Virus record (IMG/VR): IMGVR_UViG_3300044971_004534
Strand: one strand, 5' to 3'
Length of the DNA stretch: 64,000 bases
From: a virus
Shown: one piece after another, positions 21,701 through 46,665 of the stretch
Position numbering within the stretch: position 1 is the stretch's first letter
Layout: every line of letters starts with the position of its first letter
Translations under genes and position numbers: made by a program
The notes under the pieces: model-generated
Seen by the model: only the letters and a program-made list of their open reading frames with translations
What the model was told of the DNA's origin: nothing
The model's database searches: none

Positions 21701-24700
21701 GTTATGGTCCAAACGGGAATTTAGAAACTTCATCAATCAGTATGGTGTATATGAAGATAGCACCTATATCACCAGTTAGTCCAGTTTTTGGATCTTTATT
21801 TGCAGAAATAAATTATGACAAAAGTGGTCAAGTATTTAGGCAAAGAGTTGCTGGTATAGACTTTGTATATACTGGCGGCAACAACTTGGCTGTAACATCT
21901 TCTAACTTACCGGATACTGGTTCTGGTTCTGTTAATACTGGAAATGATCCAGGTAATGGTCAGCTTGGATCTGGCTTGCCGTCTGGTGGAAATAGCTCTG
22001 GCAGTAACAATCAGTCTAATTCTTTTGGATCTGTTGGCGGTGGTACTTCTAATAATCCACCTGGATCAAACCCATCCTCTTCTCTTTTCCCATTCCCAGA
22101 AATATTTGCTGAGATGGAAAATGCAACATCAAGACTTTTGGTAAACACTGCTTTTAGCAATGAATGCTATATATATGATGCCTTGGTAACTGATGTTGAT
22201 TATAGGTGGAGAAAAATAGCTAATATGAATTTAAGAAGAGCTATGCATGTATCTGAATTCGTTGATGAAAAAATATATTCAATAGGCGGACTTGCTGGCT
22301 ATACAAGTGGAGAAGCGAATGCAGAAGCAACAGTTTTGCTAACTGACACGTGTGAGGTTTGGAACTCATCCGAAAATAGGTGGACTACTGCAAGAAAATG
22401 TTTGTCAAAACGATTTGGATGCCTATCTTGTGCTGATAATAGATTTATCTATGTAATTGGTGGATTTGAGACTAGGCTTAAGGGTTCTATATCTCCTAGC
22501 GGTCAGACTGTGCAAACCAGAGTCCCCTATGTGAGTAGGCGTGTTGAGCGATATGATACTATCTCTAATACATGGCTATCTTTATCTCCAATGCCAGTTT
22601 TTGACTCTATGGGTAATCAAGTAGAAATACCTGCAGAAAATACGTTAACTGACAGAATAGGTAATGATGATGTAAATTTTGATCAATATGGTTGTGCGCT
22701 AGGAAAAGCCTACATAAAAGACAATAAAATTATAGTTTTGTGTGGTGCAAGAAAAGTAGATGACAAATTAAATGTTGAGAAATATAATAACGCTATTTTG
22801 GTGTATGATATAAGCAATAATAGCTGGTCTGTTAGCGATAGATTTTCTGCAGAATTGGCTTCAGAATTGTGCAGACTATATCCAGTTGTGTGGGAGCAAG
22901 ATGAAAATATATACATATACGGAGGGTCTTCATCTATTGTAGAAAATGTAAATGCTCAAGTCGGTGATGAAGAGTTTATTATAGAAAAGAATAAGGTTTT
23001 TGGTTTACAAAATTCGTTTGGCATTCCTTTATCCGATTTAGTCAATGATTTAACTATAAATAATATATACAGAGCAGATTATTTGTTTGGTAATTTACCA
23101 AAGTCTAGAGACCAAGTGTCTTTTGCAAATATTGATGGAGAAGGTGTATATTTGTTTGGTGGAAGAGTATTTGCTCAAAATGAAAACTTAGGAACCAATG
23201 CAACTCGTACTGCAGAAAGAATTGTTAATTTAAACGAATTGTATGTTGTAGAAAACATGGTAAAACCTTCATTTGGATTTAGTAATGCAGGTTGCGCCTC
23301 TGATGGTCTGAGATTCATATACATTACTGGAGGAACTACGACTAATCAGTCTCCTGGATTTGTAAGGTTGGAAATTGAGGTATACGGAGAGCAAACAGAA
23401 CAAATTAATTCTGAAAGATTTAGTGCAGTAGAGCCAGCCGATGCAACTGTAAGACTTGATGGATTCTCTGGAGTTGATTTAAAAATAAGTGCATATGATG
23501 ATGAAGGTGAATATGTTGTTGGCGATTTGCAGGTAGAAATATCTGGACTTCTTTCTTATGGCACAGGAGATGACGATCTTGAAGGTGGGGGAGCCTCAAT
23601 AGGAGGCAACCAAAGAGCTCCTACTTTTAATAGGAGAAGAAGACGAAAGGGCACTAGAATTTATCCTATTGTATTGAGTCCTTACAGGGTAACCTTGAAA
23701 AATGGTATTGGTTATTCTAGACTTGAGGGTAGAAGTGAAGATGTGCTAAAAAGCATTACTGAAATACAGGAAATATTAAATGCTGACTTATCAGCGGATC
23801 AAGCTGTTTTAGGAACAGCTTCCGAGTTGCAATTAAAACAGGGCAGTGTAAGGTTCCCTTATAGGATAAGTATAGTTGGTCGTGTAACTGATGATTTTTA
23901 TTTTGGCAAAACAGCATACACTTCAACAGAGGATCAAAATACAGAGCAAGAAGTATTCTTGCCAGAAAATGAGATTAATGACGTAATTGCAGATGCTGGT
24001 GACTTTGGTAATGCCATCGTAATGCCTCCAATGCTACCAGCTTATGCAAGTGCTTCTTCTCCGTTACCAATTGCTGACTATGGTCCAGTCCTTACTTGCA
24101 GCGCAGTTGGTGTCATAGGTCCCATTGGTGACGTAGATTTATTTGCATTTATTCCACCAAAATCTGGAGTTTATACTGTTACGATAGAGCAGAGAGGTTT
24201 TTCTCAACTACTTCCCCTTGTGTCGGTATTTAATAGTTCACAAAGTCCATATCCAATTAATGGTACAGCGTCAAATGAAATAAAGTTTGATAGTTTTGGA
24301 TATTCTACGGATGGAAGAACTGCTAACTTAGAGCTTTTGAAAGATGTTGTATACTATTTCCAAGTTTCTACATATGCTGGAGCTGAAAGTCAAGATGTTA
24401 ACAAAGTCGGAGCTTATAGGATAAGATTTACTATTCCTATAGCAATTATACAAAATCAAAACACAAGTGGTTCTAGCAGCAGCTCTAGCAGTAGCTCTAG
24501 TAGCAGCTCTAGTAGCAGCTCTAGTAGTAATCAAGGCGGCAACGGATCTAGTAGTAGTTCTAGCAGTAGTTCTAGCAGTAGTCAAAATTCAGGAGAAGTG
24601 GTTTCTTTTAACATTTTTGAATATTTAACAGATAGTACGGTGTCAGGTCTAAGCGATTCTTGGTCTTCTGTTTTAAGAGATTTTTATAATACTTATTTTA

Positions 24701-27700
24701 GATTTTTACTAGTAAATGGCGGTTATAGCAGTCAATCATTACAGGTTGCCATAGATACAATAAATTCAATAGCATCTTGTCCTTTTAAATGTCCCACTTG
24801 TGTTGAGTCTACTGGAGGAAATACACCTTGTGAGTCAGGATCTTTGGATTGTACGGGTTCTGACAACACTACTTGCGTAACCATATTGGGTTTGGGAAAT
24901 ATAGTATTACCAAGCAATTCAGCCACAAGTTCTAGCTCAAGTTCTAGCTCAAGTTCTAGCTCAAGTTCTAGCAGTTATTCAGATAGTCAATATGACCCTT
25001 ATACTGAAGCTTCAGATGGCACTACTCAGATAGAACCATATCAGTCTGATATACCTCCATTCGAATTACCTCCTGCAGGTGCAAACGAATTGATTATTGA
25101 AGATTTGCCATTTGAAAGATTATCTATTCCTGCACGAGTTATATTTGCCGGTGAAAGCGCAGCTCCATTAACTGAGGGTGATAGTCCAATAGTTCAATAC
25201 TATTCTGATATTGATTGGATTCCAGAAATTAATACTGACCTATTCACTGGAATTGATGCAGCTTCAAATATAAAGTTAAAAGTAAAAAAGATAAAACAAA
25301 GCATACCATTTGGTTCATCTCCTGTTTATGATGGAATCAACGATGCTGCAAGAATTATAAAATCTACTTTTGATTCAGACGAAATAATTAAAAATATATT
25401 ATTACTAAGTGATAATGATGAAAACACTAGTGGCATTTCTCCATTACAAGCTATAGAAAATGTTGACGCTATTGACGGGAAGCGTAAGGTAAAAGTAAAT
25501 TCATTTAACATAAGTACTTTTTATCCAGTTACCATAAGTGCTCAGGCTTCTAGAGCAAATATGTCTGGTGTCGGTGATGTAATCCGTCAAACTGGTGGAG
25601 CTAATTTTGCTTTGTTGTCATCCAGCCTATTTGATGAAGGTGTAGAATTTGCCTTCACTGGATCTGCTGGATCTGCTGGTGCTGGTAGACTTTCTTTAGT
25701 TGTAGATTTTGATCAAGACATTATTGTCAATACTGTTAATCCTGGAGTTGAATTAGGTAAAGCTGATTTTATCTCTTACGCAATATCGTATTCAAGTGAT
25801 GGAGAAAATTATACTAATATTCCTGATGAATTTGACGCTGGGTCGGCATGTCAAGTTGGTGCAAAATGCAGATTTATAAAGATAGACTTTGAGGGCGTAA
25901 TAGACTTCGATAAAATTGAGAACAATTTTGTTGCAGATCCATATGATCCATATAGTGATTTTGTAAAGATTAGTAAATATGATTTGTCTAAAATTAGAAG
26001 TATAGCATTTAATGTTTCTGCGGCAGATGATAACTATATATACTTAGAAAAGATTCCATTAATATCTGCACCTCAGCAAATAGTAATATTTGTTAACTGG
26101 GACGGTCCTTCAGACTCAGAGATATCAGCAGGAGCATCTACTGTTGATAGCGGCGACTGGAAGGATTATAGTAGAGATGCACAAAACGTTGCAATGGGTT
26201 CTGGAAAAGTTATAATACCTATAAGATACAAAGACAAATTTAATGTTGTCAAAGAAGAATTAACACCAATAACTCCATTCATATTTGAGTTACCACATGG
26301 GTCCGTGCATAAAAATGCCGTTATTGAAGTTTTTGATGCATCTGGACTGACTATAAATCCTAATGACTACATGATAGATAGAGATGCTGGCTTAATAAGA
26401 TTCCAATACTCTTTTTATGGCCAAAAGATTTATGTAGCAGTTGAAGAAGAGAAGAGTATTAAAATAGGAGTAAAAGCATCGTTTGGAGTAAAGCCTGGAA
26501 ATATTACTATTCAAAGCATTGGGTACATGCTTACTGTAAATGAGGATCTTGCTCCAGCAGAAACAAATCAGCCTCCACTCGCAGTAAATGTAAGAATTAA
26601 TCCAATTATAGTATACCCTTACACTAACGTAACAGCTTCTTACCGTTATTTAGATCAAGAAGGTGATGTGGAGGACGTTGATAAGAGAGTAATAAAGTGG
26701 TATAAGAACGGTATAGAAATTCCTCAGCTTGAAAATATAATTTCTTTTAATGATCTGCATAACAGCGAAGATGTGACTTATTCTTTCTATTATACATCAA
26801 ACTATGCAGAAATAGAGGCAATGTCTCCTGGTGTTACTGCAGAATTGCTTGCTAGTTTTGCTAATGAAAGAATTTTTGAGCCTGGGGATCAGATATATTT
26901 TACAGTTCAGGTTCACGATGGCAATCAGTTAAGCGGCGCGTTTAGAAGTCCAACTGTTACAGTTTCGGACTATCCGGTTGCTCCATCTGCCATTACTATA
27001 AGATCTAGATATGCAAGTGCAGCTGAAATACAGCTTTCTGATGGTGGTAATCAAGGAGGTGGTGCAGGTGGTGGCGGAGACCCCGCTAATTTTGGAGAGC
27101 TTGCTAATGAGTTTACTAACAGAACAAGATTATTCTTAGATTTTGATCTGTTCTCTCCTGCAGTGTTTAATAAAGCTGTAGTAACTTGGTACGTAATTGA
27201 TAATGCCGGTAATATAATTACTTTTAAATCTGGCAGAATATCTGACACTCAGTCTGGCATGTTCTCAATTGGACCTTCTGACACTAATATATTAAATATT
27301 GAAGCGGTAAAAATTGGTCATCAAATATATGCAGATATGTTTATTCCAAAAAATTCTGCTCCTAGTATTCTTAATGATATTACAATAAGAAGTAATACAG
27401 TCATAATAACTAATATAGTTCCAAGAGCTTCAAATGTTGTTTTGGAAAAACTGGTTGATGCAGGTACGTTTATATCTTATTGGAGATTTGCTTATACTTT
27501 TGAAGACGAAGATGTATATCAAAATGAGCCCAATCAGTCTGACAGGAGCATATTGAGATTGTATAAAAAGCTTCCAGCTGAAGACACCTTTACCTTAGAG
27601 ACAAGAATAACAGATCCCCTTAATTTCTTCATTCCTTCTGATTACTATGATGAGGGTGCTAAAATTTATCTTGAAGTTATACCTTTTGACAATGTTGCAT

Positions 27701-27762
27701 ACGGAACATCAGTAAAAAGCGAAATAGCCGAGTGGAGAAGGCCAACAGGTCCGCCGCTATAA
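15778..27762 (+). CDS. Giant multidomain adhesin/fibre-like protein (3,994 aa)
   Basis: Uninterrupted ORF. It contains a MIDAS-like FVLDHSGSMSW, FN3-like ends (DADYYYAIYPIDSNNRLGSPS; KIAYYAIVSRDRYGRMSDP), LamG, a Gly/Asn/Ser/Pro linker, Kelch blades, a polybasic RRRRRK, a PPC domain, poly-Ser tracts, a second vWA-like segment, a discoidin-like segment and C-terminal repeated Ig-like modules. Confidence 0.85.
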   Translation: MINFTKCSLTGSSFKLLYDENSSTLDSQLSYLAVNFTNSDSFWVPYRTSYNALNDVSMKLGRVSMASSLADSAESSYGQLDFSVNIKDEGDYVAAFKVSKEDGITLCSSVSLMHSMLPGKNVTSYVILNDRYGIPNEFAFDRKTEVFEFQHNMSQIAQDAVWITIEFPALVSGEYSFSIRLSGSESFDFINIDSANFIVEGFTIFKKTNFTSDGLVLRNQVTSNSSVFSSYRISSIEDSHPLSKVSFLNTLQQGEARISGLIGMQSGNTFYSLEKSVFFKLSDFSENERSVTAIIPYSISVNENDLDKICIIFSEHYDKSLWHFSYSADSSGVAGKTFKLVGEELELQEKTISLNLFESDQKYRPITSGQDSDDSKNVVVIEPPVGVPLNINSVTDSSISESVKDNFALLSDDNGNYYALNLPDRHQAFVLDHSGSMSWSDAGGERFKLINEIVDRFEQIYPGKVSYSLTTFKGTPVIVEWFGAIENNVSDSNDPDSVRTGFLQGKYTNFRGCHIVRKKSIAPSSPTDGDIVFNGFDKVLYDTDLEEDADYYYAIYPIDSNNRLGSPSIIRAKTRANEIVKGIKSLSGDEFIGTGIRKDDRSVFIYHMNEGYGSRIYDFSGNKMNLVIPDAAKNSVIWLDESESPAIDIDSDIGKGSGLRLTGRNSYCQWSGLCDKDFAGLNLSLWIYLFQNITPREKNIISIYNAFGQIDFKIGSESIFIRLNGTTVGVLSHVFLTESWNHISINVDAEWNTCSLYVNGVLYDSFSFGYYSSAISNFFNESIVKVVLGEEFENGFKGKVSEISLRNEAISLEEIEQESLFIPKDNGDRLLRLSWFTNLDNTDHKIVINYKQESGPLRLLDEDIAGPANYGRYQGDSTIGNPPNSPPGQIAQSDLKARICYGDDIGPVSAEDGITVFDSSIDGNLNECTVIQNFSSSIEKKYRFSVDAPGFRNFFRIFRINANGEQSYPDDSGLLEYTPKDYENALLPSSEVSQVENVSVVLGNRKIRLKWDVPVDSNIESVIIYYADEPFESDFIERSDNFPQKYPVFAGIKSQNSFTHFYGRVRDSQRKSAAPGSFQNTLTAAIVESEDDLDNGKIAYYAIVSRDRYGRMSDPIFVNGTPSAASNDAGIPPEGIIAARAYGVDYNTVSLRWINPVSASRFFDIEGWLDDNVVLYFRVTDIYGRRIDEQGNFEIKFRFNDFLNGIVFTNIGGGDDTKVASIIGNFDTETRLPVVENISFSELISYNLSNLSNGWTRITVNTNNASLSDRNWADAVYTEVSMVFVRNNNVGEDPIFSFSTQPIRIYLRHPLKLDLVTNDAVFYNPQSYSIFVPTYAAGSPICDIVYNGGNTDIGGEFLVYGAYNGRALPYTFTVNASYKNSPLPAGSTATIDIFEDSEPTTGVSQDGAYANLRGGFSGIIGANPELGTPASQAGLNSEEIVVRDSYPLSTTIQSVSNQIIFEDSPSGKESFGIGEIRVPGSRSFGRVFASVRVGLFYRSAGFYIGFMPTLYVKMNASAPNPDGEDVATQYAYAYVIDPNRFRVSMFDSFSNNFSIENYAQPVPDGTTVLWRLNKLRNGIDRPFYSTSQRSISGSAVDKTIDGISQNVVFGPASNINSSIIQADSDSVLLIPEEYIITATVSYNGVTSSAAQSVCIYPVTVNPDQVLPAISQTSFYFAGKSFGKTDQYTQSVYADGEDFSVLEIVKDPRLLLGEEGDARIDDIKAFCKCYNADGASNGIENASLTVLPTNQLIEIKANKLPDCQSSGLSSYIRGRIEILHGSTLNYYVGSSGKILVSSSEIGSDTALVEVRSSNRSDIVVRANTFIPLKWKYHTKLEADPGPLSPVFCNFINSGFGNSVYHNVTMSASTSVIINGTERSVFSDGGIASGNPPKMIKFVEPLYMQFAYILKNGQKVNGELIEVDGASIYEFVFAIKFAGLPVPDGTEVKFYKCGSNDLILESSVGYTVTKQEIGPWSYGPNGNLETSSISMVYMKIAPISPVSPVFGSLFAEINYDKSGQVFRQRVAGIDFVYTGGNNLAVTSSNLPDTGSGSVNTGNDPGNGQLGSGLPSGGNSSGSNNQSNSFGSVGGGTSNNPPGSNPSSSLFPFPEIFAEMENATSRLLVNTAFSNECYIYDALVTDVDYRWRKIANMNLRRAMHVSEFVDEKIYSIGGLAGYTSGEANAEATVLLTDTCEVWNSSENRWTTARKCLSKRFGCLSCADNRFIYVIGGFETRLKGSISPSGQTVQTRVPYVSRRVERYDTISNTWLSLSPMPVFDSMGNQVEIPAENTLTDRIGNDDVNFDQYGCALGKAYIKDNKIIVLCGARKVDDKLNVEKYNNAILVYDISNNSWSVSDRFSAELASELCRLYPVVWEQDENIYIYGGSSSIVENVNAQVGDEEFIIEKNKVFGLQNSFGIPLSDLVNDLTINNIYRADYLFGNLPKSRDQVSFANIDGEGVYLFGGRVFAQNENLGTNATRTAERIVNLNELYVVENMVKPSFGFSNAGCASDGLRFIYITGGTTTNQSPGFVRLEIEVYGEQTEQINSERFSAVEPADATVRLDGFSGVDLKISAYDDEGEYVVGDLQVEISGLLSYGTGDDDLEGGGASIGGNQRAPTFNRRRRRKGTRIYPIVLSPYRVTLKNGIGYSRLEGRSEDVLKSITEIQEILNADLSADQAVLGTASELQLKQGSVRFPYRISIVGRVTDDFYFGKTAYTSTEDQNTEQEVFLPENEINDVIADAGDFGNAIVMPPMLPAYASASSPLPIADYGPVLTCSAVGVIGPIGDVDLFAFIPPKSGVYTVTIEQRGFSQLLPLVSVFNSSQSPYPINGTASNEIKFDSFGYSTDGRTANLELLKDVVYYFQVSTYAGAESQDVNKVGAYRIRFTIPIAIIQNQNTSGSSSSSSSSSSSSSSSSSSSNQGGNGSSSSSSSSSSSSQNSGEVVSFNIFEYLTDSTVSGLSDSWSSVLRDFYNTYFRFLLVNGGYSSQSLQVAIDTINSIASCPFKCPTCVESTGGNTPCESGSLDCTGSDNTTCVTILGLGNIVLPSNSATSSSSSSSSSSSSSSSSYSDSQYDPYTEASDGTTQIEPYQSDIPPFELPPAGANELIIEDLPFERLSIPARVIFAGESAAPLTEGDSPIVQYYSDIDWIPEINTDLFTGIDAASNIKLKVKKIKQSIPFGSSPVYDGINDAARIIKSTFDSDEIIKNILLLSDNDENTSGISPLQAIENVDAIDGKRKVKVNSFNISTFYPVTISAQASRANMSGVGDVIRQTGGANFALLSSSLFDEGVEFAFTGSAGSAGAGRLSLVVDFDQDIIVNTVNPGVELGKADFISYAISYSSDGENYTNIPDEFDAGSACQVGAKCRFIKIDFEGVIDFDKIENNFVADPYDPYSDFVKISKYDLSKIRSIAFNVSAADDNYIYLEKIPLISAPQQIVIFVNWDGPSDSEISAGASTVDSGDWKDYSRDAQNVAMGSGKVIIPIRYKDKFNVVKEELTPITPFIFELPHGSVHKNAVIEVFDASGLTINPNDYMIDRDAGLIRFQYSFYGQKIYVAVEEEKSIKIGVKASFGVKPGNITIQSIGYMLTVNEDLAPAETNQPPLAVNVRINPIIVYPYTNVTASYRYLDQEGDVEDVDKRVIKWYKNGIEIPQLENIISFNDLHNSEDVTYSFYYTSNYAEIEAMSPGVTAELLASFANERIFEPGDQIYFTVQVHDGNQLSGAFRSPTVTVSDYPVAPSAITIRSRYASAAEIQLSDGGNQGGGAGGGGDPANFGELANEFTNRTRLFLDFDLFSPAVFNKAVVTWYVIDNAGNIITFKSGRISDTQSGMFSIGPSDTNILNIEAVKIGHQIYADMFIPKNSAPSILNDITIRSNTVIITNIVPRASNVVLEKLVDAGTFISYWRFAYTFEDEDVYQNEPNQSDRSILRLYKKLPAEDTFTLETRITDPLNFFIPSDYYDEGAKIYLEVIPFDNVAYGTSVKSEIAEWRRPTGPPL
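17590..18230 (+). other. LamG / concanavalin-A-like lectin domain
   Basis: Motifs are LSLWIYLFQ, ISIYNAFGQIDFKIGSESIFIRLNG, SWNHISINVDAEWNTCSLYVNGVLYDS and FKGKVSEISLRNEAIS. Confidence 0.55.
22150..23390 (+). other. Kelch-type beta-propeller repeats
   Basis: Blades are IYSIGGLAGY, RFIYVIGGFE, YDTISNTWLSLSPMP, IIVLCGARK, VYDISNNSWSV, IYIYGGSS, GVYLFGGRV and FIYITGGTT. Confidence 0.65.
24061..24440 (+). other. Bacterial pre-peptidase C-terminal (PPC)-like domain
   Basis: Motifs are GPIGDVDLFAFIPPKSGVYTVTIE, VYYFQVSTYAG and GAYRIRF. Confidence 0.5.
24466..24582 (+). repeat. Two poly-Ser runs split by NQGGNG
   Basis: In-frame AGC/TCT/AGT codons (SGSSSSSSSSSSSSSSSSSSSNQGGNGSSSSSSSSSSSS). Confidence 0.95.
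24928..24975 (+). repeat. Poly-Ser tract with a 12-nt tandem unit
   Basis: The unit agttctagctca occurs about 4 times, in frame. Confidence 0.95.
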
Positions 27763-33181: not shown

Positions 33182-33398
33182 AAATAGAACTTCTGGACCA
33201 GTAGAAGGTTTTGGAGATGCAGGTTTGCCAAAAGCAAATAAAAATTTTTCATATCCATCTTTAGAGCTTAGTGGAATGGATATTAAGATTGATAAAAATA
33301 ACAGAATGGGCAAAAGAAGAATATACCAACTTGGCACATGGATGCCGTGCCAGGAAAATGACGATGAATGCAAAGATGATACAACTGAAAGTAGATAA
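33174..33398 (+). CDS. Small hypothetical protein (74 aa)
   Basis: ORF that fills the gap before the helicase gene. No motif recognised. Confidence 0.4.
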   Translation: MAKNRTSGPVEGFGDAGLPKANKNFSYPSLELSGMDIKIDKNNRMGKRRIYQLGTWMPCQENDDECKDDTTESR

Positions 33399-34875
33399 CG
33401 TTGTTACTTATATAAGTCCACCTTTGTCTGGACAAACCTACGCTGAATTTAAAAAGAAACTTGGATACAAGCCACAAGATTCAGTATGGATGTCTAATGC
33501 AAATCCTCACTGGGATGGCTGGATTACTACAGTTTGTTACGGATCAGGCAAGTGCAGGTGTCCAAACAAAAAATCTGAAATGCATTTTCCAACTGGCTTG
33601 CTTTCTCATGCTCGAGAGTTTTTTGCTTCTAAAGAAATAGAATACGAAATTGTAGATTGTAGAGCACAAATTGATGATTTACGTCCTTTAGATTTAAGCA
33701 ATGCTTATGTTCTTAGAGATTACCAGGAAGAAGCTATATCTAACGCTATTAAAAAGCAAAGAGGCATAATAAAGGCTGCAACTGGTGCTGGTAAAACAGT
33801 AATAGCTGGATCTATCATAGCAAAAGTCGGAGCATTTCCTACATGTTTTTTTGTTACCACTAAAGATCTTTTGCATCAGGCCAAAGAAGAATTAGAAAAA
33901 CTTATACTAGAAAACGGCAAACCTGTAAAGGTCGGGATGGTTGGTGCTGGAAGATGTGAAATAGAAGACATCAATGTTGTCACTGTGCAAACTGCAGTAA
34001 GGGCTTTTGGTTTAAAATATCAGCAGTTTGATGACGAGGAAGATGACGATGGTTCTGAATTTATTGATAAAGATGAATCAAAGCGTCAGGCCATAAAGTC
34101 TTTAATCAATAATTCAAAAATGATTATATGTGATGAAGTTCAGCATTGGGCTGCATCAACATGTCAAATTATTAGTGATCACTGTAAATCTGCTCGCTAC
34201 AGGTATGGTGTTTCTGCTACTCCATGGAGAGACATGGACGATGATTTACTAATTGATGCTTGTTTTGGTAAGATAATTTCAGAGATAAGTGCAAGTAAAT
34301 TAATAGAAAAAAAAGTTTTAGTACCACCTAAAATATATTTTGTTCATATTAAAAATAAATTTGGTGGAACGTATGCAGAAGTTTACAAAAGGGGCATAGT
34401 TGAAAATACTTATAGAAATACTATTATAAAAAATTTAGCTGAGGACATGGTTGCTGATGGTAGGCAGACTCTTATTTTAGTAAGGCATGTTGCCCATGGA
34501 GAAATCCTGCAGGACATGATTCCTAATTCAATATTTTTGCATGGTTCTATTGCAAGTAAAAGTAGGCAGAACGCAATTAATATGATGAAGAAGGGTAAGC
34601 ACAGGTGCATAATAGCCTCATCAATATTTGATGAGGGCGTTGACGTAAGGCCTTTAAGCGCACTTATACTTGCTGGTTCTGGCAAAAGTCAAACTAGAGC
34701 TCTTCAAAGAATAGGAAGGGTAATTAGGTCGTATGAGGGTAAAAATGATGCTATCATTATTGATTTTTTTGATGACATGAAATACATGAGAAAACATAGT
34801 CAGGCAAGAAGAAAAATGTATAAAACTGAACCAAAGTTTGAGATCTCTGACATTGAGATGGATACTAATGGGTAG
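33376..34875 (+). CDS. uvsW: UvsW-like SF2 DNA helicase
   Basis: The N-terminal domain (HWDGWITTV..FPTGLLSHAREFF) is laid out as in T4 UvsW. Helicase motifs are YQEEAI, ATGAGKT, ICDEVQH, SATPWR and QRIGRVIR. I chose the start at MIQLKVDN; 33271 and 33358 are also possible. Confidence 0.7.
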   Translation: MIQLKVDNVVTYISPPLSGQTYAEFKKKLGYKPQDSVWMSNANPHWDGWITTVCYGSGKCRCPNKKSEMHFPTGLLSHAREFFASKEIEYEIVDCRAQIDDLRPLDLSNAYVLRDYQEEAISNAIKKQRGIIKAATGAGKTVIAGSIIAKVGAFPTCFFVTTKDLLHQAKEELEKLILENGKPVKVGMVGAGRCEIEDINVVTVQTAVRAFGLKYQQFDDEEDDDGSEFIDKDESKRQAIKSLINNSKMIICDEVQHWAASTCQIISDHCKSARYRYGVSATPWRDMDDDLLIDACFGKIISEISASKLIEKKVLVPPKIYFVHIKNKFGGTYAEVYKRGIVENTYRNTIIKNLAEDMVADGRQTLILVRHVAHGEILQDMIPNSIFLHGSIASKSRQNAINMMKKGKHRCIIASSIFDEGVDVRPLSALILAGSGKSQTRALQRIGRVIRSYEGKNDAIIIDFFDDMKYMRKHSQARRKMYKTEPKFEISDIEMDTNG

Positions 34876-34876
34876 G

Positions 34877-35716
34877 ATGAATAAGTTAGCTATAAGCGAC
34901 GCCATCAAGAAGGCAAGAAAAGAAGTAGACGGTGTAACTGTCGAAATAAAAAAAGAAGTTTCTTTTCAAGAAAATTGTGATCTTTTTCCTTCAGAAACTT
35001 TTAAGATTGCTAATGCAGATTGGTTTGACGAAAGAGTAGTTGGTGCTTTTAGGGCAAAAAGCATTGTTGATTGGAACAAGAAAGACTTTCTTGATTTTGT
35101 TAAGCATCTTTATTTTCAAAAATTTGCATGTACTCCGACAATACCGCCAGCACATGGTTATATGTATTTGAATGTAATAGAAGAAATATGCGTAAACAAC
35201 TTTCCAGAGTCTCAAATTAAAATGTTAAAGGCAAGATATATATCTTGGTACTTTGAGAATCAAATACTAAAAGACACTATTAAGTACAGAACTTGGAACA
35301 TTAAAAAGATGGTCCATCCAAAAGTAGTTGCTGCATTTATTATGCATTTTTCAGGCTCTGCATCTGACTCAGTTGATTCTATCAAAAAAAGCAATCGATT
35401 ACCAGTTAATGAAAGTCTTTTAGAGCTTTATTTTAGGGGAGATGCTGCAGAGTTCATTCGTTGTTATGGGGTAATTATTCCATTCGCATTTTTGTTCTAT
35501 TCTAAAAAGTTTTCTTGGGAAGATTCTTTAGAATATGTTGCTGCTGCAATAGCAGATTTGGTTTTAAGTAAAAATATTAAGGATACTGTATTGCGTAAAG
35601 TAACAGAGCAGTATGGTCCTTACAATAGTCGTTTTGACAAAATAGCGCCTGAGCGTTTGTTTGTTGCGTTGACAGACAAAACTGGCGTCAACTTTATAGG
35701 AGTAAAGATAAAATAA
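34877..35716 (+). CDS. Hypothetical protein
   Basis: Long ORF. The ATG at 34877 lies just after the helicase stop. No motif recognised. Confidence 0.6.
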   Translation: MNKLAISDAIKKARKEVDGVTVEIKKEVSFQENCDLFPSETFKIANADWFDERVVGAFRAKSIVDWNKKDFLDFVKHLYFQKFACTPTIPPAHGYMYLNVIEEICVNNFPESQIKMLKARYISWYFENQILKDTIKYRTWNIKKMVHPKVVAAFIMHFSGSASDSVDSIKKSNRLPVNESLLELYFRGDAAEFIRCYGVIIPFAFLFYSKKFSWEDSLEYVAAAIADLVLSKNIKDTVLRKVTEQYGPYNSRFDKIAPERLFVALTDKTGVNFIGVKIK

Positions 35717-36210
35717 TGAGTTCCTTAGCTCAAAAGTATCCGGTTAATTTTCACATTCGTGCCTCTTTTGTTCATTTGATTGATGAGTCTGGTAGGTCTT
35801 GCGGTTCTGTTCATATTGATGACGCCCTAAGAAGGGCAAGAGACGCTGGTTTGGATCTAGTGCAGGTTTCTATGGATTCAAATAAGCCAACTTGTAAGAT
35901 CATGGATTTTGGTAAGTTTAAGTATGAACTTTCCAAGCAAAAGCAGTCTTCTACTCATAAAACAAAAGAACTTTTTATTACTGCTCATATTGGAAAGCAC
36001 GACTTAGATACTAAAGTTAACAAGTTGAAGGAATTTGTTTCTAAAAAATACTCTGTTCTTTTTGGAGTTAAATTTAAGACGAAAAAAGAAAAGTCAAATG
36101 TTGAGCCATTAAAGCAGATGATAGTTCAGTGTCTTAGTAATGCTGGAGTCAATGCTGATAATGTTGAATTTCAGTATGCACCTGATAAGATTACAGTGTT
36201 TATAAAATGA
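35716..36210 (+). CDS. infC: Translation initiation factor IF-3 homologue (both domains)
   Basis: VNFHIRASFVHLIDESGRSCGSVHIDDALRRARDAGLDLVQVSMDSNKPTCKIMDFGKFKYELSK aligns with the bacterial IF-3 N-domain and linker (INGEIR..VRL....G....ALE.AEEAGVDLVEIS....PVCRIMDYGKF.YE.SK). A C-domain-sized remainder follows. Confidence 0.85.
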   Translation: MSSLAQKYPVNFHIRASFVHLIDESGRSCGSVHIDDALRRARDAGLDLVQVSMDSNKPTCKIMDFGKFKYELSKQKQSSTHKTKELFITAHIGKHDLDTKVNKLKEFVSKKYSVLFGVKFKTKKEKSNVEPLKQMIVQCLSNAGVNADNVEFQYAPDKITVFIK

Positions 36211-36986
36211 GTGAAATTGAAAATACATACAATAAAAAACTTGCAGAATTGCGCCAGAAATGTGGAGTATATCGTCCTGATGAAAAACGATGTCCAGCAG
36301 CAAGATGCATATGTTCTTCTATGGCAGAATGTATGGCCTATCACAGCAGTGTTTTGCCACATGGGTATGTAGATGTAGAAATTTCTTCTTTTAATGGTCA
36401 CGTGAACGGCAATAGAACTGTTGACAATCATGTTGTGGCAACTGCTATCACAAAGGTTATGAGCTATTGCTTTGGTGATCATAAGATCAAGACTGATGCT
36501 TCAAGATATGAGCTATACAAAGCTTCGGTAATGGACGAAAGATTTGCTTCAGGTACTAATTTAGTTATACACGGAGAGAGCAAGTCTGCAAATAAAAACA
36601 AGCTTGGAAAGACTATGCTTGCATCTATTGTTGTAAAAGAAGCAATTTGGAGAAGAATGTTTAAAGACAATAAGGCATATACATATATGTTTAAAAGTTG
36701 TGCTGAGATTATTGATGATATTATATCAAAAAGATCTGTAGATGCCCAAGTGAACTCTTTTAATGCAGATTGGCTTTGTATAGATGATATATTTTTGTCT
36801 AACAGGCAATCTCAGGGTCACATACTGGATCAAATCATGTCAGTACGACTGCGTGAAAATTTGCCTTCTATACTAGTTATTCAGTTTGATCCTTTTAAAA
36901 TTAATAATCCAGAAGAATCACTTGGCAACCATGTGATGAAGATGCTATCCGATAAATCAAATACGTTTGTAGTCTCACTGGGTTAA
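36207..36986 (+). CDS. DnaC/IstB-like AAA+ helicase-loader candidate with an interrupted P-loop
   Basis: LVIHGESKSANKNKLGKTMLA is a Walker A with an insertion. WLCIDDIF is Walker-B-like. The gene sits immediately upstream of dnaB. Confidence 0.45.
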   Translation: MSEIENTYNKKLAELRQKCGVYRPDEKRCPAARCICSSMAECMAYHSSVLPHGYVDVEISSFNGHVNGNRTVDNHVVATAITKVMSYCFGDHKIKTDASRYELYKASVMDERFASGTNLVIHGESKSANKNKLGKTMLASIVVKEAIWRRMFKDNKAYTYMFKSCAEIIDDIISKRSVDAQVNSFNADWLCIDDIFLSNRQSQGHILDQIMSVRLRENLPSILVIQFDPFKINNPEESLGNHVMKMLSDKSNTFVVSLG

Positions 36987-36987
36987 T

Positions 36988-38442
36988 ATGCAACCAGATA
37001 TTGAAAATCCACATGTTAAGCTGCTATTCCTTTTGACTCAGTCAAAAGAGCACGTAGAAGAAGTTTTGTCTCTAGTCCAGGAGCCAAGCAATCTATTTGT
37101 TGAGCCATCTCATCAAGCTATACTAAAAGCTTGTATTTGGGCTAGAGACAAGAATAAGCATTTAACATCAGAGCAATTAGAGTATTTTTGCAGATTTAAT
37201 CTTTCTTATACTCCTCAAAAAACAGCAGTTCTTGTTGCAGAATATTCTGCCATTGAGTCTATAGAGCATGTAAAAAAAGAAGATCTAAACGTACTTATTA
37301 ATGAATGTCAAAATCTTTACTATTATAGATTTTTAAAATTTGAACTTGATAAGATTAAAACTGATAGGTCTCCAGATTTCTTTAAAAAGCTGAATAGCTT
37401 ACACGACAATATAGGAAAGTGCTTATCTACTGGCGTAAGTAACACATTCTCTTTTCATGACACTGTAGAAAATTTTGGATCGTTTGTTGAAGATCTTCAT
37501 CTGAAAGCAAACCAGCCAGAAAAAAGAATTACTTGTGGAATAAAAGAAATTGATGATTGCATGACGGTTGGTTTTAGACCAGGAACTCTTACGTTAACTG
37601 TTGCAGATGTTGGCGGTGGTAAGTCCACTATGATGCTCAACATTGCTTACAATTTATGGAAGAGAAATTGCAATGTGCTTTTCCTGCCATTAGAAATGCC
37701 ATGGGAAGAGATATTCAAAAAGTTTCTTTCTAGAGAAACTCTCATAGAATTTGAAAAGTTTGCAAGACCTGAATTGATGACAGAAAAAGATTGGGAAATA
37801 CTTAGAAAAAGGTCTGACGATCTTGCATCCATGAAGCAAAAGCTTGTTTGGGCTGATGTAAAAAGCAGACCTACTGTTCAAGAGATAAAAAGAGCTATAG
37901 AAAGCAAGATGCATTATTTCAAGCCAGATGTAGTTGTAATTGACTATATTGCCAATATAAAGCCGGATGGAAAAGTTGATAACTGGCTTGCCATTGGCGA
38001 TATACTTAAAGAGCTAAGAGCTTTAGGTAAGCAGTATGGATTCGCTATCCTCAGTGCTGCTCAGATGACAAGAGACGGCATTAAGAAGCTAAAGAGTGAC
38101 AAGGATCAGTCAAAGAGTCCAGGCAGTGAAGACTTGCGTGGAAGTCATGAGTACTCTGCAGACGCAGACAATATTTTTGCTCAATCACCGTCTCCAGATG
38201 AACCTAACAGAAAAATGCTATTATGGTGTATTAAGGCAAGGTATGGTAAAAAAACTTTTGATGGTAAAAATTACGCTATATTAGATTTTTATCCAGAATA
38301 TAGCAAGATAGATAGCTCTACTGCATACTCATTTGATGTAAATGATGAAGAGTTTAAAAAGCAACTAGATGCCATGTCTGGCTTTGCAAAGCCACAAAAT
38401 TCTGATCAGGCCTCAGAAGACGATTATGGATGGATGGCATAA
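36988..38442 (+). CDS. dnaB: DnaB-family replicative helicase
   Basis: Motifs are GIKEIDDCMTVGFRPGTLTLTVADVGGGKSTMMLNIAYN, VVVIDYI and ILSAAQMTRDG. Confidence 0.85.
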   Translation: MQPDIENPHVKLLFLLTQSKEHVEEVLSLVQEPSNLFVEPSHQAILKACIWARDKNKHLTSEQLEYFCRFNLSYTPQKTAVLVAEYSAIESIEHVKKEDLNVLINECQNLYYYRFLKFELDKIKTDRSPDFFKKLNSLHDNIGKCLSTGVSNTFSFHDTVENFGSFVEDLHLKANQPEKRITCGIKEIDDCMTVGFRPGTLTLTVADVGGGKSTMMLNIAYNLWKRNCNVLFLPLEMPWEEIFKKFLSRETLIEFEKFARPELMTEKDWEILRKRSDDLASMKQKLVWADVKSRPTVQEIKRAIESKMHYFKPDVVVIDYIANIKPDGKVDNWLAIGDILKELRALGKQYGFAILSAAQMTRDGIKKLKSDKDQSKSPGSEDLRGSHEYSADADNIFAQSPSPDEPNRKMLLWCIKARYGKKTFDGKNYAILDFYPEYSKIDSSTAYSFDVNDEEFKKQLDAMSGFAKPQNSDQASEDDYGWMA

Positions 38443-38969
38443 TGCGAGAATACATAGATCAGTTAAAGCGTAAGGTAAGAATAGCTGATGTCTTGAGAGA
38501 AAGGGGCATTCAGCCTTCTAGGTCTCATGCGGGTAAGTTAGTATATAAATGCCCACTGCATAAGGGAGATAATTCTCCTAGTTTTTATGTTTATGAAAAA
38601 GATTCAGGAGATGATTATTTTTGCTACGGCTGCAAAGCTGGGGGCAATGTTGTACATCTTGTAAAGTCATTAAATAACTGTAGCGGCTCTGAGGCAGTTA
38701 AGTCTCTTGGCGAGATAGCAGGAATAGATGTAGATCCTTATTATTTTCAGTATGATATAGATGTATATATTGAAAGTCCAATGTCTGCAGACATGAATGT
38801 TGATGACATATTGTGTAAATCAACTTTGTCTTTTAGAAAATTAAGACAATTAAATGCTATTAAAAATTCTTACGACGTTGATTTAAAATGGCAAAAAATA
38901 GATCATGCTTATTGGGCAAATGATGTGCGTGCCATAAAAGAGAGTTCTTCATGGACCAATGGGAAATAA
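38442..38969 (+). CDS. dnaG: Stand-alone DnaG zinc-binding (zf-CHC2) domain protein
   Basis: Contains CPLHKGDNSPSFYVYEKDSGDDYFCYGCKAGGNVVHLV. TAATG-coupled to dnaB. No Toprim or RNA-polymerase core. Confidence 0.8.
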   Translation: MREYIDQLKRKVRIADVLRERGIQPSRSHAGKLVYKCPLHKGDNSPSFYVYEKDSGDDYFCYGCKAGGNVVHLVKSLNNCSGSEAVKSLGEIAGIDVDPYYFQYDIDVYIESPMSADMNVDDILCKSTLSFRKLRQLNAIKNSYDVDLKWQKIDHAYWANDVRAIKESSSWTNGK

Positions 38970-39893: not shown

Positions 39894-40142
39894 ATGGAAT
39901 ATAAGTGTAGATTTGAAAGATTGGATAAGATAAAAACAGATGATCTAAAAAAGATCAGCCTGTGTACTGAGTGTCATAGTTTTGATTGTAGTAACCCGAT
40001 ACAGAACGTTACAATAAGCGTTTTTGGTATTAATAAAACTATAAGGGCGTATGTTACTCCTAATAACACCTATGGTGTTCAGGATTGCGAAGGTTTTAGC
40101 TGTCACAGCTCAATAGAGGAAGAAGATGACTCTGAAGATTAA
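39894..40142 (+). CDS. Small Cys-rich protein with an acidic tail
   Basis: Contains CTECHSFDC and CEGFSCH. The C-terminus is EEEDDSED. Overlaps the start of the polymerase gene. Confidence 0.5.
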   Translation: MEYKCRFERLDKIKTDDLKKISLCTECHSFDCSNPIQNVTISVFGINKTIRAYVTPNNTYGVQDCEGFSCHSSIEEEDDSED

Positions 40143-41424
40143 CAATTCTAATTTTGTTCACTTGCATAACCATTCTGAATTTAGTGCCTTTGACGGCTTA
40201 AATAAAATGTCAGAGTTTCCCAAGCTTGCCAGAAGTATGGGTTTTAAAGCTTTAGGAATTACAGATCACGGCAACGTTGGTGGATTAATTAAGTTTTTTC
40301 AAGAATGCACAAAGTCAGTTGACAAGAATGGTAACAAGATTGAGTATGATCCAATAAAGCCTATTTTGGGATGTGAATTTTATTTAGCAAAAGATAGATT
40401 TGCAAAAAGCAAAAAGGATCAGCCAGATGGAAGAAAAGGCAACAGACACATTGTTTTGATTGCAAAAAACTGGCAGGGTTTTCAGAATCTTTGTACACTA
40501 TCAGAAAAGAGTTGGACAGAAGGTTTTTATAATGATCCTAGAATAGACTTTGAATTACTTACAAAGCATCATGAGGGTTTAATTTGCAGTACTGCCTGCT
40601 TAAGTTCGGTTGTAAACAATAATTTACTTCACGGCAGATACGATCAAGCAAAAAAAGTTGCAACTATATTAAAAAATATATTTGGAGAAGATTTTTATTT
40701 CGAAGTTATGTATCATGGTCTTGATGCTGAAAGGTATATTATTCCAGATGTATTTAAGTTGGCTGATTCTTTAGGCTCAAAAGTGCTTGCAACAAATGAT
40801 GTGCACTATTCTCACAAAGAAGATGGAGCAAGTCATGAAGTATTAATGTGCATGAGCACTTCACGATGCATACACGATCCTAAGAGATTAAAATTTCCGT
40901 ATCATGAGTTTTATCTTAAGAGCGCTCAAGAGATGGCTGGCATATTTCAAAACCGTCTTGACTCTTTGTATAATACCTTGGAGGTTGCGGACAAAATAGA
41001 TCACAAGGACATATCTAAAAACTTTGGAGGTATGAGGCTTCCTAAATTTCCACTACCAAACAGTTTTTCAGATCCGCATGATTATCTTGAATATATAGCT
41101 TGGGACGGTTTAAAGCAACTTGGATTAGACCACTCGCAAAAGCATATTGATCGGTTGAGACTTGAATTAGACGACGTTAAGATAGCAAAGATGAATAATA
41201 ACTATGATTTTGCTACATACTTTTTAATTGTGCGCGATTATATTCAATATGCAAACACCAAAGGTATATTAACTGGCTGTGGAAGAGGATCTGGCTTTGG
41301 CAGTCTTCTTCTAAAGACTCTTGGAATAACTTACGGGGTAGATCCTATTGAGCATGATTTGTTGTGGGAAAGATTCCTGGGATTTGATACGAAGAGATTT
41401 GTAAGGGAGCAAGACTTTGTCTAA
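40126..41424 (+). CDS. dnaE: DNA polymerase III alpha (DnaE-type), N-terminal part: PHP domain to pre-palm segment
   Basis: FVHLHNHSEFSAFDG and GITDHGNVGG mark the PHP domain. The ORF ends GRGSGFGSLLLKTLGITYGVDPIEHDLLWERFLGFDTKRF, just before the position of the catalytic DxD. Confidence 0.85.
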   Translation: MTLKINNSNFVHLHNHSEFSAFDGLNKMSEFPKLARSMGFKALGITDHGNVGGLIKFFQECTKSVDKNGNKIEYDPIKPILGCEFYLAKDRFAKSKKDQPDGRKGNRHIVLIAKNWQGFQNLCTLSEKSWTEGFYNDPRIDFELLTKHHEGLICSTACLSSVVNNNLLHGRYDQAKKVATILKNIFGEDFYFEVMYHGLDAERYIIPDVFKLADSLGSKVLATNDVHYSHKEDGASHEVLMCMSTSRCIHDPKRLKFPYHEFYLKSAQEMAGIFQNRLDSLYNTLEVADKIDHKDISKNFGGMRLPKFPLPNSFSDPHDYLEYIAWDGLKQLGLDHSQKHIDRLRLELDDVKIAKMNNNYDFATYFLIVRDYIQYANTKGILTGCGRGSGFGSLLLKTLGITYGVDPIEHDLLWERFLGFDTKRFVREQDFV

Positions 41425-43369
41425 TTTAGAATTTATTAAAGCAAAGGTTCTTGAATCTGAAAGGTATCTATCATTAAGTGAAGCACATAAAAAAAGGTGC
41501 TTGGATGAAATAGATATGATGAATTCATCTCCAGGCTTGTCTGGGGATACTGTATTAGAAGAATTTATTAATGTTTATAAAAAACTTCAAGGTAAAGATG
41601 GTCCAAGGAATGCAGTAAATAGCTGTGTTGCATATTGCTTGTCTATGACTTCATGCTTGCCTTCTTTAAGCGAAGAGTTTCTTCCTTCTCGTCGTATTTT
41701 TGCTAGAGCTGGATTTCCAGATATTGATGCAGATTTTGACTACGAAAGAAGGCATGAGGTTTATGAGTATTTAATTGAAAAATATGGAAGAGATAGAGTT
41801 GGCAATATTGGTACATATGGTACTTTAAAAATGAAGAGCTATATTACCAGAGTGGTTAAGGCTTTAGATTTAGCAAATAGTTTTCATTTAGGTAAAGAAA
41901 GTTATGTAAAGAACAACAATATGCTTGTTCGTGAAATTATCGATTCTTTGCCTGAGCAAAAAGGCGCCTTCTTAAAGGTAAGAGATGATGAGGGCGAAGA
42001 TCATGTAATAAAAAATCTTTCAGATGCCATGACACACTGTGATTCTTTTGGTCAATATATGAAAAAGTATTCACAGATATCAGATCACTCTAATAGAATT
42101 GAAGGATTAGCTTCTAGTTATGGTGTTCATGCTGCCGGTATTGTTATATCTGGTGAGCCTTTGGCGCGAATAGCTCCACTGAGAGCAACAAGTAAGAGCG
42201 ATGAGAATGCAGGCGCTGAATATGCAACTCAGTTTGCGTATGAAGACTTAGAATATCTTGGTCTTATTAAGTTTGATATCTTAGCTCTTAGTACTTTGAG
42301 CGTCATATCTGAAACTGTAAAAACCATTAAAGAAAGACTTGGAATAGACATTGACATACAAAAACTACCATTGGACGATGAAAAATCTTTTGAACTTTAT
42401 CGCAGCGGCAATTTGACGGGAGTTTTTCAATGTGAAGAAAAGGGCATGCAAAAGACCATGATGCAAATGGGTGTAGACAGATTTGAAGATATTTGTGCAG
42501 GCATCGCTCTTTTTAGACCTGGACCTATGGCCAGTATCCCAAAATACTGTGGAAGAAAAAATGGAACCGAATCTATAGATTACTATGACGATTCAATTGT
42601 AAAGTATGTTGAAAATATTTTAAAACCAACTTATGGTATTTTAGTTTATCAAGAACAGGTTATGCAGATATGCAATAGTCTTGCTGGTATGACGGTAAGC
42701 GATGGCTATCAAGTTATTAAGGCTGTAGGTAAGAAGAAAGAAGATCAGCTCAAAAAGTACAAATCTATATTCGTAGATGGGTGCTGTAAGAATGGTATTG
42801 ACAAATCTTTGGCTTCTCGATATTGGGAAGAATTTATTATGCCATTTGCAGCATACGGATTTAATAAGTCTCACTCATATTGCTATGGACTTTTAAGTTA
42901 TCAAACTGCTTATTTAAAAGCAAATTTTCCTGCAGAATTTATGCTTAGTTATCTTAATGTGGAATGCTTCCAAAAGAAATGGGACAGAGTTGATATTCTT
43001 ATTGATGAAACTCGCAGAATGGGCATATTAATAAGTGCAAAAAATCTAAATGTATGTAAATTAAAGTTCTCTATGAGTGAAGATCGTGTTGGTGGCAGGA
43101 CAAAGTACACCATCACTCCATCTTTATTGTGCAAAGGATTAAAGATGAGTGCTGCTGAGGAGATATCTCTCAAGCAGCCTTTCAAGAGTTATGAAGATTT
43201 TGTGCAAAAGATAGATACTACAGTTGTTGATACAGAAGCAATTACTGCTTTGCAGGATGCTGGATTTTTCCCTAAAACAAAAGATGCTGTTGATAAATTT
43301 ATAAAACTTCGTGATCATATCCGCGCAACTCGCAAAAAAGGCATGAGTGGTGTCGATATATTTCAATAA
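41417..43369 (+). CDS. dnaE: DNA polymerase III alpha (DnaE-type), C-terminal part: palm, fingers and HhH; no OB/tau-binding tail
   Basis: Motifs are FPDIDADFDYERR, GVHAAGIVIS, LIKFDILALSTLSV, ALFRPGPM, YGILVYQEQVMQI and YGFNKSHSYCYG. TTG start; the first ~100 aa are not typical DnaE sequence. Confidence 0.85.
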   Translation: MSNLEFIKAKVLESERYLSLSEAHKKRCLDEIDMMNSSPGLSGDTVLEEFINVYKKLQGKDGPRNAVNSCVAYCLSMTSCLPSLSEEFLPSRRIFARAGFPDIDADFDYERRHEVYEYLIEKYGRDRVGNIGTYGTLKMKSYITRVVKALDLANSFHLGKESYVKNNNMLVREIIDSLPEQKGAFLKVRDDEGEDHVIKNLSDAMTHCDSFGQYMKKYSQISDHSNRIEGLASSYGVHAAGIVISGEPLARIAPLRATSKSDENAGAEYATQFAYEDLEYLGLIKFDILALSTLSVISETVKTIKERLGIDIDIQKLPLDDEKSFELYRSGNLTGVFQCEEKGMQKTMMQMGVDRFEDICAGIALFRPGPMASIPKYCGRKNGTESIDYYDDSIVKYVENILKPTYGILVYQEQVMQICNSLAGMTVSDGYQVIKAVGKKKEDQLKKYKSIFVDGCCKNGIDKSLASRYWEEFIMPFAAYGFNKSHSYCYGLLSYQTAYLKANFPAEFMLSYLNVECFQKKWDRVDILIDETRRMGILISAKNLNVCKLKFSMSEDRVGGRTKYTITPSLLCKGLKMSAAEEISLKQPFKSYEDFVQKIDTTVVDTEAITALQDAGFFPKTKDAVDKFIKLRDHIRATRKKGMSGVDIFQ

Positions 43370-45480: not shown

Positions 45481-46665
45481 ATGAAGAAATCATCAGTTGG
45501 TATTGAAAATTTAAAAGGCTTCCAGTTAGGAGCTAATGTCGAGGTTAAGGATCTGATCCCAACTGGGCATGCAGAGCTTGACCACACAATAGCTGCTGGC
45601 TTGATGGAAGATGGAGAAAAGTTCACCACTGGTGGACTGCCTCTTGGAAAACTGTGCTTGTTTTATGGTAATGAGGGAAGCGGCAAAAGCAGTTTAGCTT
45701 ATCGAGTTGTCGGCTCAGCACAGCGTATGGGATACAACTGTGCATGGGTTGATACCGAGCACTCGTTTAGTGATCAACTTGCTGAGGTCAATGGAGTTGA
45801 TAAAAAGAAATTGTTTTACAGTAACCTTATCAACTTAGAAGATCCAGATAAGATTTCTACTGCGGAAAATGTCATGGATATGGTCATTAATGCTTGTGCA
45901 AGCAAGAAGATTAATGTCATAGTTCTAGATTCTGTTGCCAATCTGATACCAGAACGAGTAATGGATAATGACGCAGATAAAGATACTGTTGCAGAGTTAG
46001 CACGAGTTTTAAGTAAAACCTTAGGAAAAATGCTAAGTTTTGCTGCATCTAACAACGTTTTAGTAATCTTTATTAATCAACTTAGAGAAAAGATAGGTGT
46101 TATGTTTGGAAGTCCAGATACAATGCCTGGCGGCAGAGCTTTAAAGCATGCTTCAAGTCTTATTCTTAAGGTTACAAAGTTAGAATCTAAGGCTCACAAT
46201 ATCATGATGCAAAATGAAGATGGAACTGAACGTCTAATTGGCAGATACTCAAGCGTCATGATTGAGAAGAATAGATTTGCCAAGCCTAATCAGGGTTCTA
46301 TGCCAGTGCCAATTTATTATGAGCCATATTTCCCGGATGTTTCTGACGTTGCTTTTGATGCTGGCAGAAATACTAAGGTGATAAAGGTTAGGAACGGAAC
46401 ATTTATGTGGAACGACATCAAGGCTGATGGTCGTAAGTCTTTCATAGACTTAATAAAAGATGTTGACATTTTAGAAAACCTTGTATCAGAAATCAAAGAG
46501 CAGGCTGAGGAACAAGATATTGTTTTGCCGATTGAATTGGTAAAATTTGATCGTGAAAAGTATATCGAAACTATGAAAAAGGCAAGACCAGCTTCTGAGG
46601 ATTCTGTTTCAGAAAAGCCAACAACAAAGCGTAATAAGAACGTTCCAGAACAAGCAGAGGCATAA
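45481..46665 (+). CDS. recA: RecA recombinase (bacterial type)
   Basis: Motifs are GGLPLGKLCLFYGNEGSGKSSLA, VIVLDSVANL and LVIFINQLREKIGVMFGSPDTMPGGRALKHASSL. Confidence 0.9.
   Translation: MKKSSVGIENLKGFQLGANVEVKDLIPTGHAELDHTIAAGLMEDGEKFTTGGLPLGKLCLFYGNEGSGKSSLAYRVVGSAQRMGYNCAWVDTEHSFSDQLAEVNGVDKKKLFYSNLINLEDPDKISTAENVMDMVINACASKKINVIVLDSVANLIPERVMDNDADKDTVAELARVLSKTLGKMLSFAASNNVLVIFINQLREKIGVMFGSPDTMPGGRALKHASSLILKVTKLESKAHNIMMQNEDGTERLIGRYSSVMIEKNRFAKPNQGSMPVPIYYEPYFPDVSDVAFDAGRNTKVIKVRNGTFMWNDIKADGRKSFIDLIKDVDILENLVSEIKEQAEEQDIVLPIELVKFDREKYIETMKKARPASEDSVSEKPTTKRNKNVPEQAEA

Follow-up and report, generated by a model that had tools for sequence, protein, structure and literature searches.

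A two-domain translation initiation factor IF3 in the replication operon of an uncultured huge-phage lineage

The window, meaning the whole 64,000-nt stretch of viral DNA analysed here (IMG/VR record IMGVR_UViG_3300044971_004534), carries a gene for translation initiation factor IF3 among phage replication genes. The gene and its surroundings comprise the following features:

33271–34875, plus strand: SF2 helicase gene, the upstream synteny marker
34838–35716, plus strand: upstream coupled ORF of about 282–292 aa, TAATG overlap, no family
35698–35702, plus strand: SD-like AGGAG, 13 nt before the IF3 ATG, inside the upstream ORF and identical in 7/7 loci of the subclade
35716–36210, plus strand: infC (IF3) gene, 164 aa, ATG start, TGA stop
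36207–36986, plus strand: gene for a DnaC-like loader candidate (phrog_50, E 1.7e-4), ATGA overlap
36988–38442, plus strand: DnaB-like helicase gene, a lineage marker independent of IF3

The block runs in the order exonuclease, SF2 helicase, 292-aa ORF, IF3, DnaC-like loader candidate, DnaB, primase Zn-ribbon, split DnaE and RecA/UvsX, and 22/22 of its genes lie within about 40 nt of the preceding stop. The original prediction had placed an IF3 homologue inside a replication module and coupled to both neighbours. This was confirmed: the helicase, loader-candidate, DnaB, primase and DnaE genes form a co-directional phage replication operon, the stop of the 292-aa ORF shares base 35716 with the IF3 ATG at the upstream TAATG junction, and the downstream ATGA junction lies at 36207–36210. 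The contrast it drew between the normal ATG start and the non-canonical starts of bacterial genes also holds, as E. coli infC starts with ATT and 41/80 bacterial infC loci have no canonical start (no in-frame ATG, GTG or TTG up to 40 codons upstream of N16), whereas the IF3 gene starts with ATG in 7/7 loci compared, where its neighbours are phage genes. The thrS-infC-rpmI-rplT context was not found around the phage IF3, and promoter-like sites around the gene were seen at chance level only. In a marine RNA run one 151-nt contig falls within the IF3 gene; it may be DNA.

Several other genes of the block are unusual as well. The DnaC-like loader candidate (36207–36986), syntenic in all relatives, carries an insertion in the Walker A loop and has a cluster of Cys residues at its N-terminus. 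DnaE is split over two genes (window 40126–43369), of which one contains PHP and the other begins with a TTG conserved in six loci; relatives carry inteins in the DnaE region. The primase is also split, with a Zn-ribbon gene (38430–38969) after dnaB and a Toprim core (46665–47423) 8 kb downstream.

The 164-aa protein matches the TIGR00168 infC profile with 100 bits (E 1.2e-28; cut-off 60 bits) and Pfam IF3_N (PF05198) with 86 bits, while Pfam IF3_C is matched only partially, with 24 bits over profile positions 2–44 and thus under its cut-off of 34.8. It also matches the phrog_9787 profile (E 5e-23) and solved IF3 chains with E-values down to 1e-16. The AlphaFold model (pLDDT 84) has the two-domain layout of IF3 and retrieves IF3 structures, its N-terminal domain reaching TM-scores of 0.82–0.87 to 1tif and 6o6d. 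When the C-terminal 87 residues were folded alone, the top five structure matches were all IF3-C (Z 7.2–8.9, rmsd 2.4–3.0 over 80–85 residues), and because of this the 'C-domain-sized region' of the original prediction is, by its modelled fold, a real IF3-C domain. The two domains are located as follows:

35743–35946, plus strand: IF3 N-terminal domain, residues 10–77 (PF05198 match and model)
35962–36207, plus strand: IF3 C-terminal domain, residues 83–164 (beta-alpha-beta-alpha-beta-beta)

The profile alignments proposed as a check therefore support the assignment with TIGR00168 and IF3_N and stay sub-threshold with IF3_C. Full-length similarity stands for the N-domain, the fold of the C-domain and the TIGR00168 match; the linker, claimed to be colinear, is not (15 versus 20 residues). 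Positions 35716–36210 thus encode a two-domain IF3 carried by a phage.

For comparison we used G002, a 223-kb IMG/VR relative (55% complete) that is colinear with the window at 70–79% nucleotide identity. It carries seven tRNAs, one tail-fibre match and one virion-protein match; IF1, S1, S21, terminase, capsid, sheath and gp23 were not found in this 55% fragment. The phage IF3 protein is present on contigs up to 406 kb. No close isolated phage was found, DnaB identity being about 22–26%. The source is most naturally read as a huge tailed phage, and it belongs to a broad uncultured phage lineage with genomes of ~400 kb. Elsewhere the window contains two giant ORFs of 4709 aa (162–14291) and 3994 aa (15778–27762) with RCC1, dockerin, pectate-lyase-like and Kelch domains, and a sialic-acid-like sugar cluster (51518–55104) of two sialyltransferase-like genes, a cytidylyltransferase, NeuB and a HAD hydrolase. 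A sigma-factor-like gene (window sites 62737–62788 and 62782–63552) has a sense promoter, and a perfect antisense TTGACA-17-TATAAT overlaps its start; both promoter sites recur in G002 at 119861 and 119912.

The window protein has 20 close homologues (56–96% identity, nearly all 164–165 aa) that stand well apart from other IF3s, and the gene order is common to those of their loci that were looked up. Compared with G002, dN/dS of IF3 is 0.03, like that of neighbouring replication genes, and the linker plus first half of the C-terminal domain (CTD) is 98% identical; by such sequence comparison IF3 is strongly selected where it is kept. In order not to select on IF3, we collected further relatives via DnaB. 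Of the loci obtained in this way, 35 (including a few duplicates, and reaching down to 31% DnaB identity) have IF3 upstream of DnaB; another 10 lack it cleanly, their flanking genes abutting. In the DnaB tree these 10 loci (L134–L136, L139, L143, L145–L148 and L150) fall into two distinct clades, each with full support and each lying among IF3-bearing clades. IF3 was thus lost from this site twice, and because both losses are clean it is probably accessory and dispensable there, although it may have moved elsewhere in the IF3-less genomes. The two IF3-less sub-lineages have a GC content of 0.38–0.52, compared with about 0.33–0.34 in IF3-bearing relatives, which possibly marks host shifts.

The lineage IF3s form one clade (98/92), and the trees suggest that IF3 was acquired once by the ancestor of the lineage and then inherited vertically in the replication operon. 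The top bacterial IF3 matches are from Planctomycetota and Pelagibacteraceae, and identity does not exceed about 45% for any of the bacterial IF3s found; the tree sets the clade apart on a long branch, and no bacterial donor is identifiable from it. In the best tree the clade is separate from the Rak2-like and Atu_ph07 copies, and a single clade with the IF3 of phage Hallingskeid was not rejected (p-AU 0.36).

The residue anatomy was compared among 22 proteins of the clade, 81 bacterial and 16 other phage proteins in E. coli numbering. T. thermophilus R91, R123, G124, R125 and R159 were mapped to R99, R131, G132, R133 and R168 with an offset derived from structure-chain alignment. Segments 72–79 and 94–110 of IF3 contact 16S rRNA, while the five T. 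thermophilus residues lie at the start codon, where R91 contacts A+1 (PMC5037330). R25 binds the elbow of the initiator tRNA, and R25A lowers fidelity (PMC9723500). In mitochondrial IF3 (mtIF3), H170/D171/K175 are needed for subunit dissociation (PMC3401457). The corresponding sites of the phage gene are:

35923–35967, plus strand: linker Y70–K84, five residues shorter than in E. coli
35980–35982, plus strand: T89 for E. coli R99 (alignment); F87 replaces K97
35998–36015, plus strand: H95-D96...K100, rRNA-binding/subunit-dissociation motif (E. coli D106, K110; mtIF3 H170/D171/K175)
36070–36090, plus strand: KFKTKKE for the start-codon loop RFRGRE, G132 lost and one residue inserted
36181–36189, plus strand: hairpin turn P156-D157-K158 for G167-R168-Q169 (alignment, model), in a register uncertain by one residue, so that K158 may stand in for R168

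The phage IF3 keeps the core of the N-terminal domain (NTD), K66, Y75, K94-E95, H105-D106, K110, F117 and K131. Changed in the clade are R25 (to H/Y), E55 (Q), P62 (K/R), K97 (F), R99 (T/S) and K123 (S), together with G132, which became N/T plus a one-residue insertion, and G167-R168, which became P-D. In the N-domain of the window protein itself, H20 stands for R25, Q50 for E55 and K57 for P62, and Y70 is E. coli Y75. The linker has 15 residues with 4 Lys, compared with 20 residues and 8 Lys in E. coli; 62/81 bacterial IF3s have 20 residues and the lineage mostly 15–18. Planctomycetota IF3s (L035–L093) have linkers of 16–19 residues; in them the RGR loop is retained, and R/K25 and R99 are almost always present.

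All clade proteins (22/22) and all lineage loci (35/35) have the H-D...K motif unchanged, and Y75, K/R66, H105, D106 and K110 are likewise present in 35/35 loci. R/K25, found in 81/81 bacteria, remains in 2/35 lineage loci, and R/K99 in 4/35 versus 71/81. G132 is kept in 30/35 loci and was lost mainly in the subclade of the window; within the clade R25 and R99 are each found in 0/22 proteins and G132 in 1/22. Aligned in this way, the erosion appears graded across the lineage. All eight marker residues are present in 69/81 bacteria, mostly 6–7 in other phages and 0–3 in this clade. The rRNA-binding segments (72–79, 94–110) keep 8/9 bacterially conserved sites, K97 being the one lost, and the second CTD half keeps 9/21. 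The replacements F87, T89 and Q50 are themselves fixed (21–22/22 clade proteins). Losses are not significantly concentrated on tRNA/codon contacts (4/7 lost versus 1/9 in the rRNA segments, p=0.11; versus other polar conserved sites, p=1.0). General drift on a long branch could explain them. It is safe to say from the alignments that the rRNA-binding surface appears preserved and that much of the remainder has moved to new, often fixed, residues. The idea of altered fidelity in the original prediction thus has a basis in the alignments, where R25, R99 and the RFRGR loop all appear changed. However, the fidelity residues Y75 and K131 are kept, which counts against relaxed proofreading, and mitochondrial IF3 proofreads even without the arginines (PMC11775629).

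The specific roles suggested for such a change fared less well. Tolerance of TTG and GTG starts is not supported by the relatives: IF3-less sub-lineages use more of them (17/89 versus 14/177 in IF3-bearing near relatives, a difference confounded by higher GC). Among 22 syntenic genes across 7 loci no non-canonical start was found, every conserved N-terminus being readable from a canonical codon, mostly ATG. In G002, ATG accounts for 78/93 coupled starts. SD motifs precede 36% of coupled starts versus 5% of internal ATGs, with no significant difference in SD use between loci with and without IF3 (p=0.25). As to overlapping starts, overlaps in 74/183 cases with IF3 versus 29/99 without amount to a weak difference (p=0.07) between loci that are not independent. 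With host IF3 in excess, re-initiation falls and M13 is blocked (PMC2268962), while another study found IF3 to be required for 70S scanning (PMC12548453).

A class of transcripts that such a factor might more plausibly affect, and that the original prediction did not mention, are leaderless mRNAs. In G002, sigma70-type promoters with a -10 element ending exactly 6 nt before an operon-first ATG occur 3 times versus 0.07 expected, in a post hoc count. Pooled over G002–G004 there are 9 promoters of leaderless geometry versus 0.5 expected, and another four relatives, in which the spacers have diverged, preserve this geometry. This two-hexamer test was devised after viewing the sequences concerned and later held out of sample; a -10-only test for leaderless genes gave no excess (5 versus 4.8 expected). 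No promoter of this geometry lies within the window. The sites are:

G002, 165476, 208768, 215464 and 220405: leaderless-geometry promoters
G003, 44806, 94114, 96730 and 185083, and G004, 33422: leaderless-geometry promoters
L195:9838, L196:10001, L203:1613 and L204:2454: leaderless-geometry promoters

Just upstream of one promoter of this type in G003 lies a peptide-deformylase-like ORF (L208:759–1400; HEVDH motif, by eye). Judged by promoter geometry, the lineage appears to make leaderless mRNAs. Excess E. coli IF3 inhibits leaderless translation, and exchanging RFRGR of E. coli IF3 for mitochondrial KKGK ends this inhibition and relaxes codon discrimination (PMC11775629). KFKTKKE may be regarded as a comparable Lys-rich loop replacement, and by this analogy IF3 may help to translate the leaderless mRNAs of the lineage. 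Against a link between loop and leaderless mRNAs, G003 and G004 keep RGR despite their leaderless-type promoters. Many phages without IF3 translate leaderless mRNAs. It also counts against the link that early leaderless mRNAs may be translated before IF3 from the replication operon exists.

Taking these observations together, we lean towards a 30S-binding IF3 with low proofreading that would ease leaderless and coupled phage initiation, a reading that is quite possible, if somewhat short of probable. The factor would probably dock on h23/h24/h44 via the intact 72–79 and 94–110 surface and block premature 50S joining like host IF3; its inspection of tRNA and codon would be weaker than that of host IF3. 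Its ATG start would escape AUU-type autoregulation. It is more doubtful that the phage IF3, free of this autoregulation, supplements or competes with its host counterpart; anti-association and recycling would then be supplied, and leaderless and re-initiated phage mRNAs would be spared the penalty they incur when host-type IF3 is plentiful. Our confidence thus falls from 30S binding to relaxed checking to mRNA preference, all of which we infer. A more far-reaching version, in which a proofreading-light phage IF3 displaces host IF3 and biases initiation towards leaderless and coupled mRNAs, converging by analogy on mitochondrial IF3, is rather unlikely; if true, a defined preference for an mRNA class would be a first among phage initiation factors.

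Alternatively, the phage may simply supplement its host with an IF3 that is host-like in all respects including fidelity and that keeps 30S subunits and recycling going when the host factor is diluted or destroyed, the substitutions being compensated drift on a long branch. This is possible, though not probable. The retained NTD core, Y75, K66, K131 and rRNA surface, a loss of checking residues that is not enriched, the canonical starts and the normal SD use (36% versus 5% background) all agree with it, as does the role proposed for other jumbo-phage IF3s (PMC7824862). However, it leaves R/K25, universal in bacteria (81/81), at 0/22 in the clade and 2/35 in the lineage, the fixation of F87, T89 and Q50 (21–22/22) suits a new constraint, and other phage IF3s mostly retain 6–7/8 markers. 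A dominant-negative mimic for host takeover, which would hold 30S away from host mRNAs or displace host IF3 with initiation not completed, is improbable: normal initiation is needed for the SD-led or coupled genes of the phage itself, and both domains are intact. Such a mimic would suit a conserved binding surface with diverged ligand contacts and second CTD half (9/21 kept), and the linker may be too short for the tRNA-following movement (PMC5037330), but Planctomycetota IF3s function with linkers of 16–19 residues.

The place between the helicase and loader/DnaB genes, kept across the lineage, could also speak for a non-translation role tied to the replication module. We consider this very improbable, as conservation peaks at 16S rRNA-binding residues, IF3 was lost twice while the replisome genes stayed, functions are mixed in the block, which is a single coupled operon, and in other phages IF3 adjoins clp genes. 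As to a decaying pseudogene or a misassembled bacterial infC, the IF3_C score under its cut-off is the one observation in this direction, and selection (dN/dS 0.03) and synteny refute both, making the chance negligible. Against both stand also the length fixed at 164–165 aa, the constant neighbours in many independent assemblies, the missing thrS/rpmI/rplT context and a position outside all sampled bacterial IF3 clades; a pseudogene and bacterial contamination were accordingly rejected.

Phage IF3 as such is already known. It has been reported in huge phages (PMC7162821, PMC11748809) and in jumbo phages (PMC7824862), the function of the Sharanji IF3 was called undetermined (PMC11895373), and the JGI annotation names members of this clade IF-3. 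Our literature search returned no paper on the IF3 variant of this lineage and no functional test of any phage IF3. New are the ancestral replication-operon copy, the graded residue loss, the two gene losses and the possible leaderless link. If the protein is an ordinary IF3, the finding is routine. The lineage offers a natural gradient, from near-canonical IF3 through R25/R99-less and RFRGR-less forms to loss of the gene, in phages that appear to use leaderless mRNAs. On it one could test for what reason giant phages have initiation factors of their own, and whether nature can separate anti-association from proofreading.

Compared with bacterial IF3 (TIGR00168; PF05198 + PF00707; E. coli 8jsg, T. 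thermophilus 5lmn), the phage protein has the same two-domain architecture and fold and shares Y75, K94-E95, D106, K110 and F117. It differs in its ATG start, its operon and a linker shorter by five residues; R25, E55, P62, K97, R99, K123, G132 and probably R168 are replaced, and it ends before P176. The IF3s of jumbo and huge phages (PHROG 9787; compared were Atu_ph07 AUZ94813.1, Phosso, Hallingskeid, Sharanji WNN14575.1 and LR756501/504/511) are likewise full-length and phage-borne in very large genomes, with 30–35% identity. Their sampled linkers have 20–22 residues, they mostly keep 6–7/8 markers (one aligned Rak2-like copy has R99->S and R131->V) and they adjoin clp genes, whereas the window copy is part of a replication operon and comes from an uncultured lineage. 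Mammalian mtIF3, which is not close kin, has H-D-x3-K for dissociation in common with the phage IF3 (PMC3401457); it lacks most of the bacterial arginines, has Lys-rich KKGK for RFRGR and serves leaderless mRNAs (PMC11775629). The long terminal extensions of mtIF3 are absent from the phage protein, which retains Y75 and no longer has the loop glycine.
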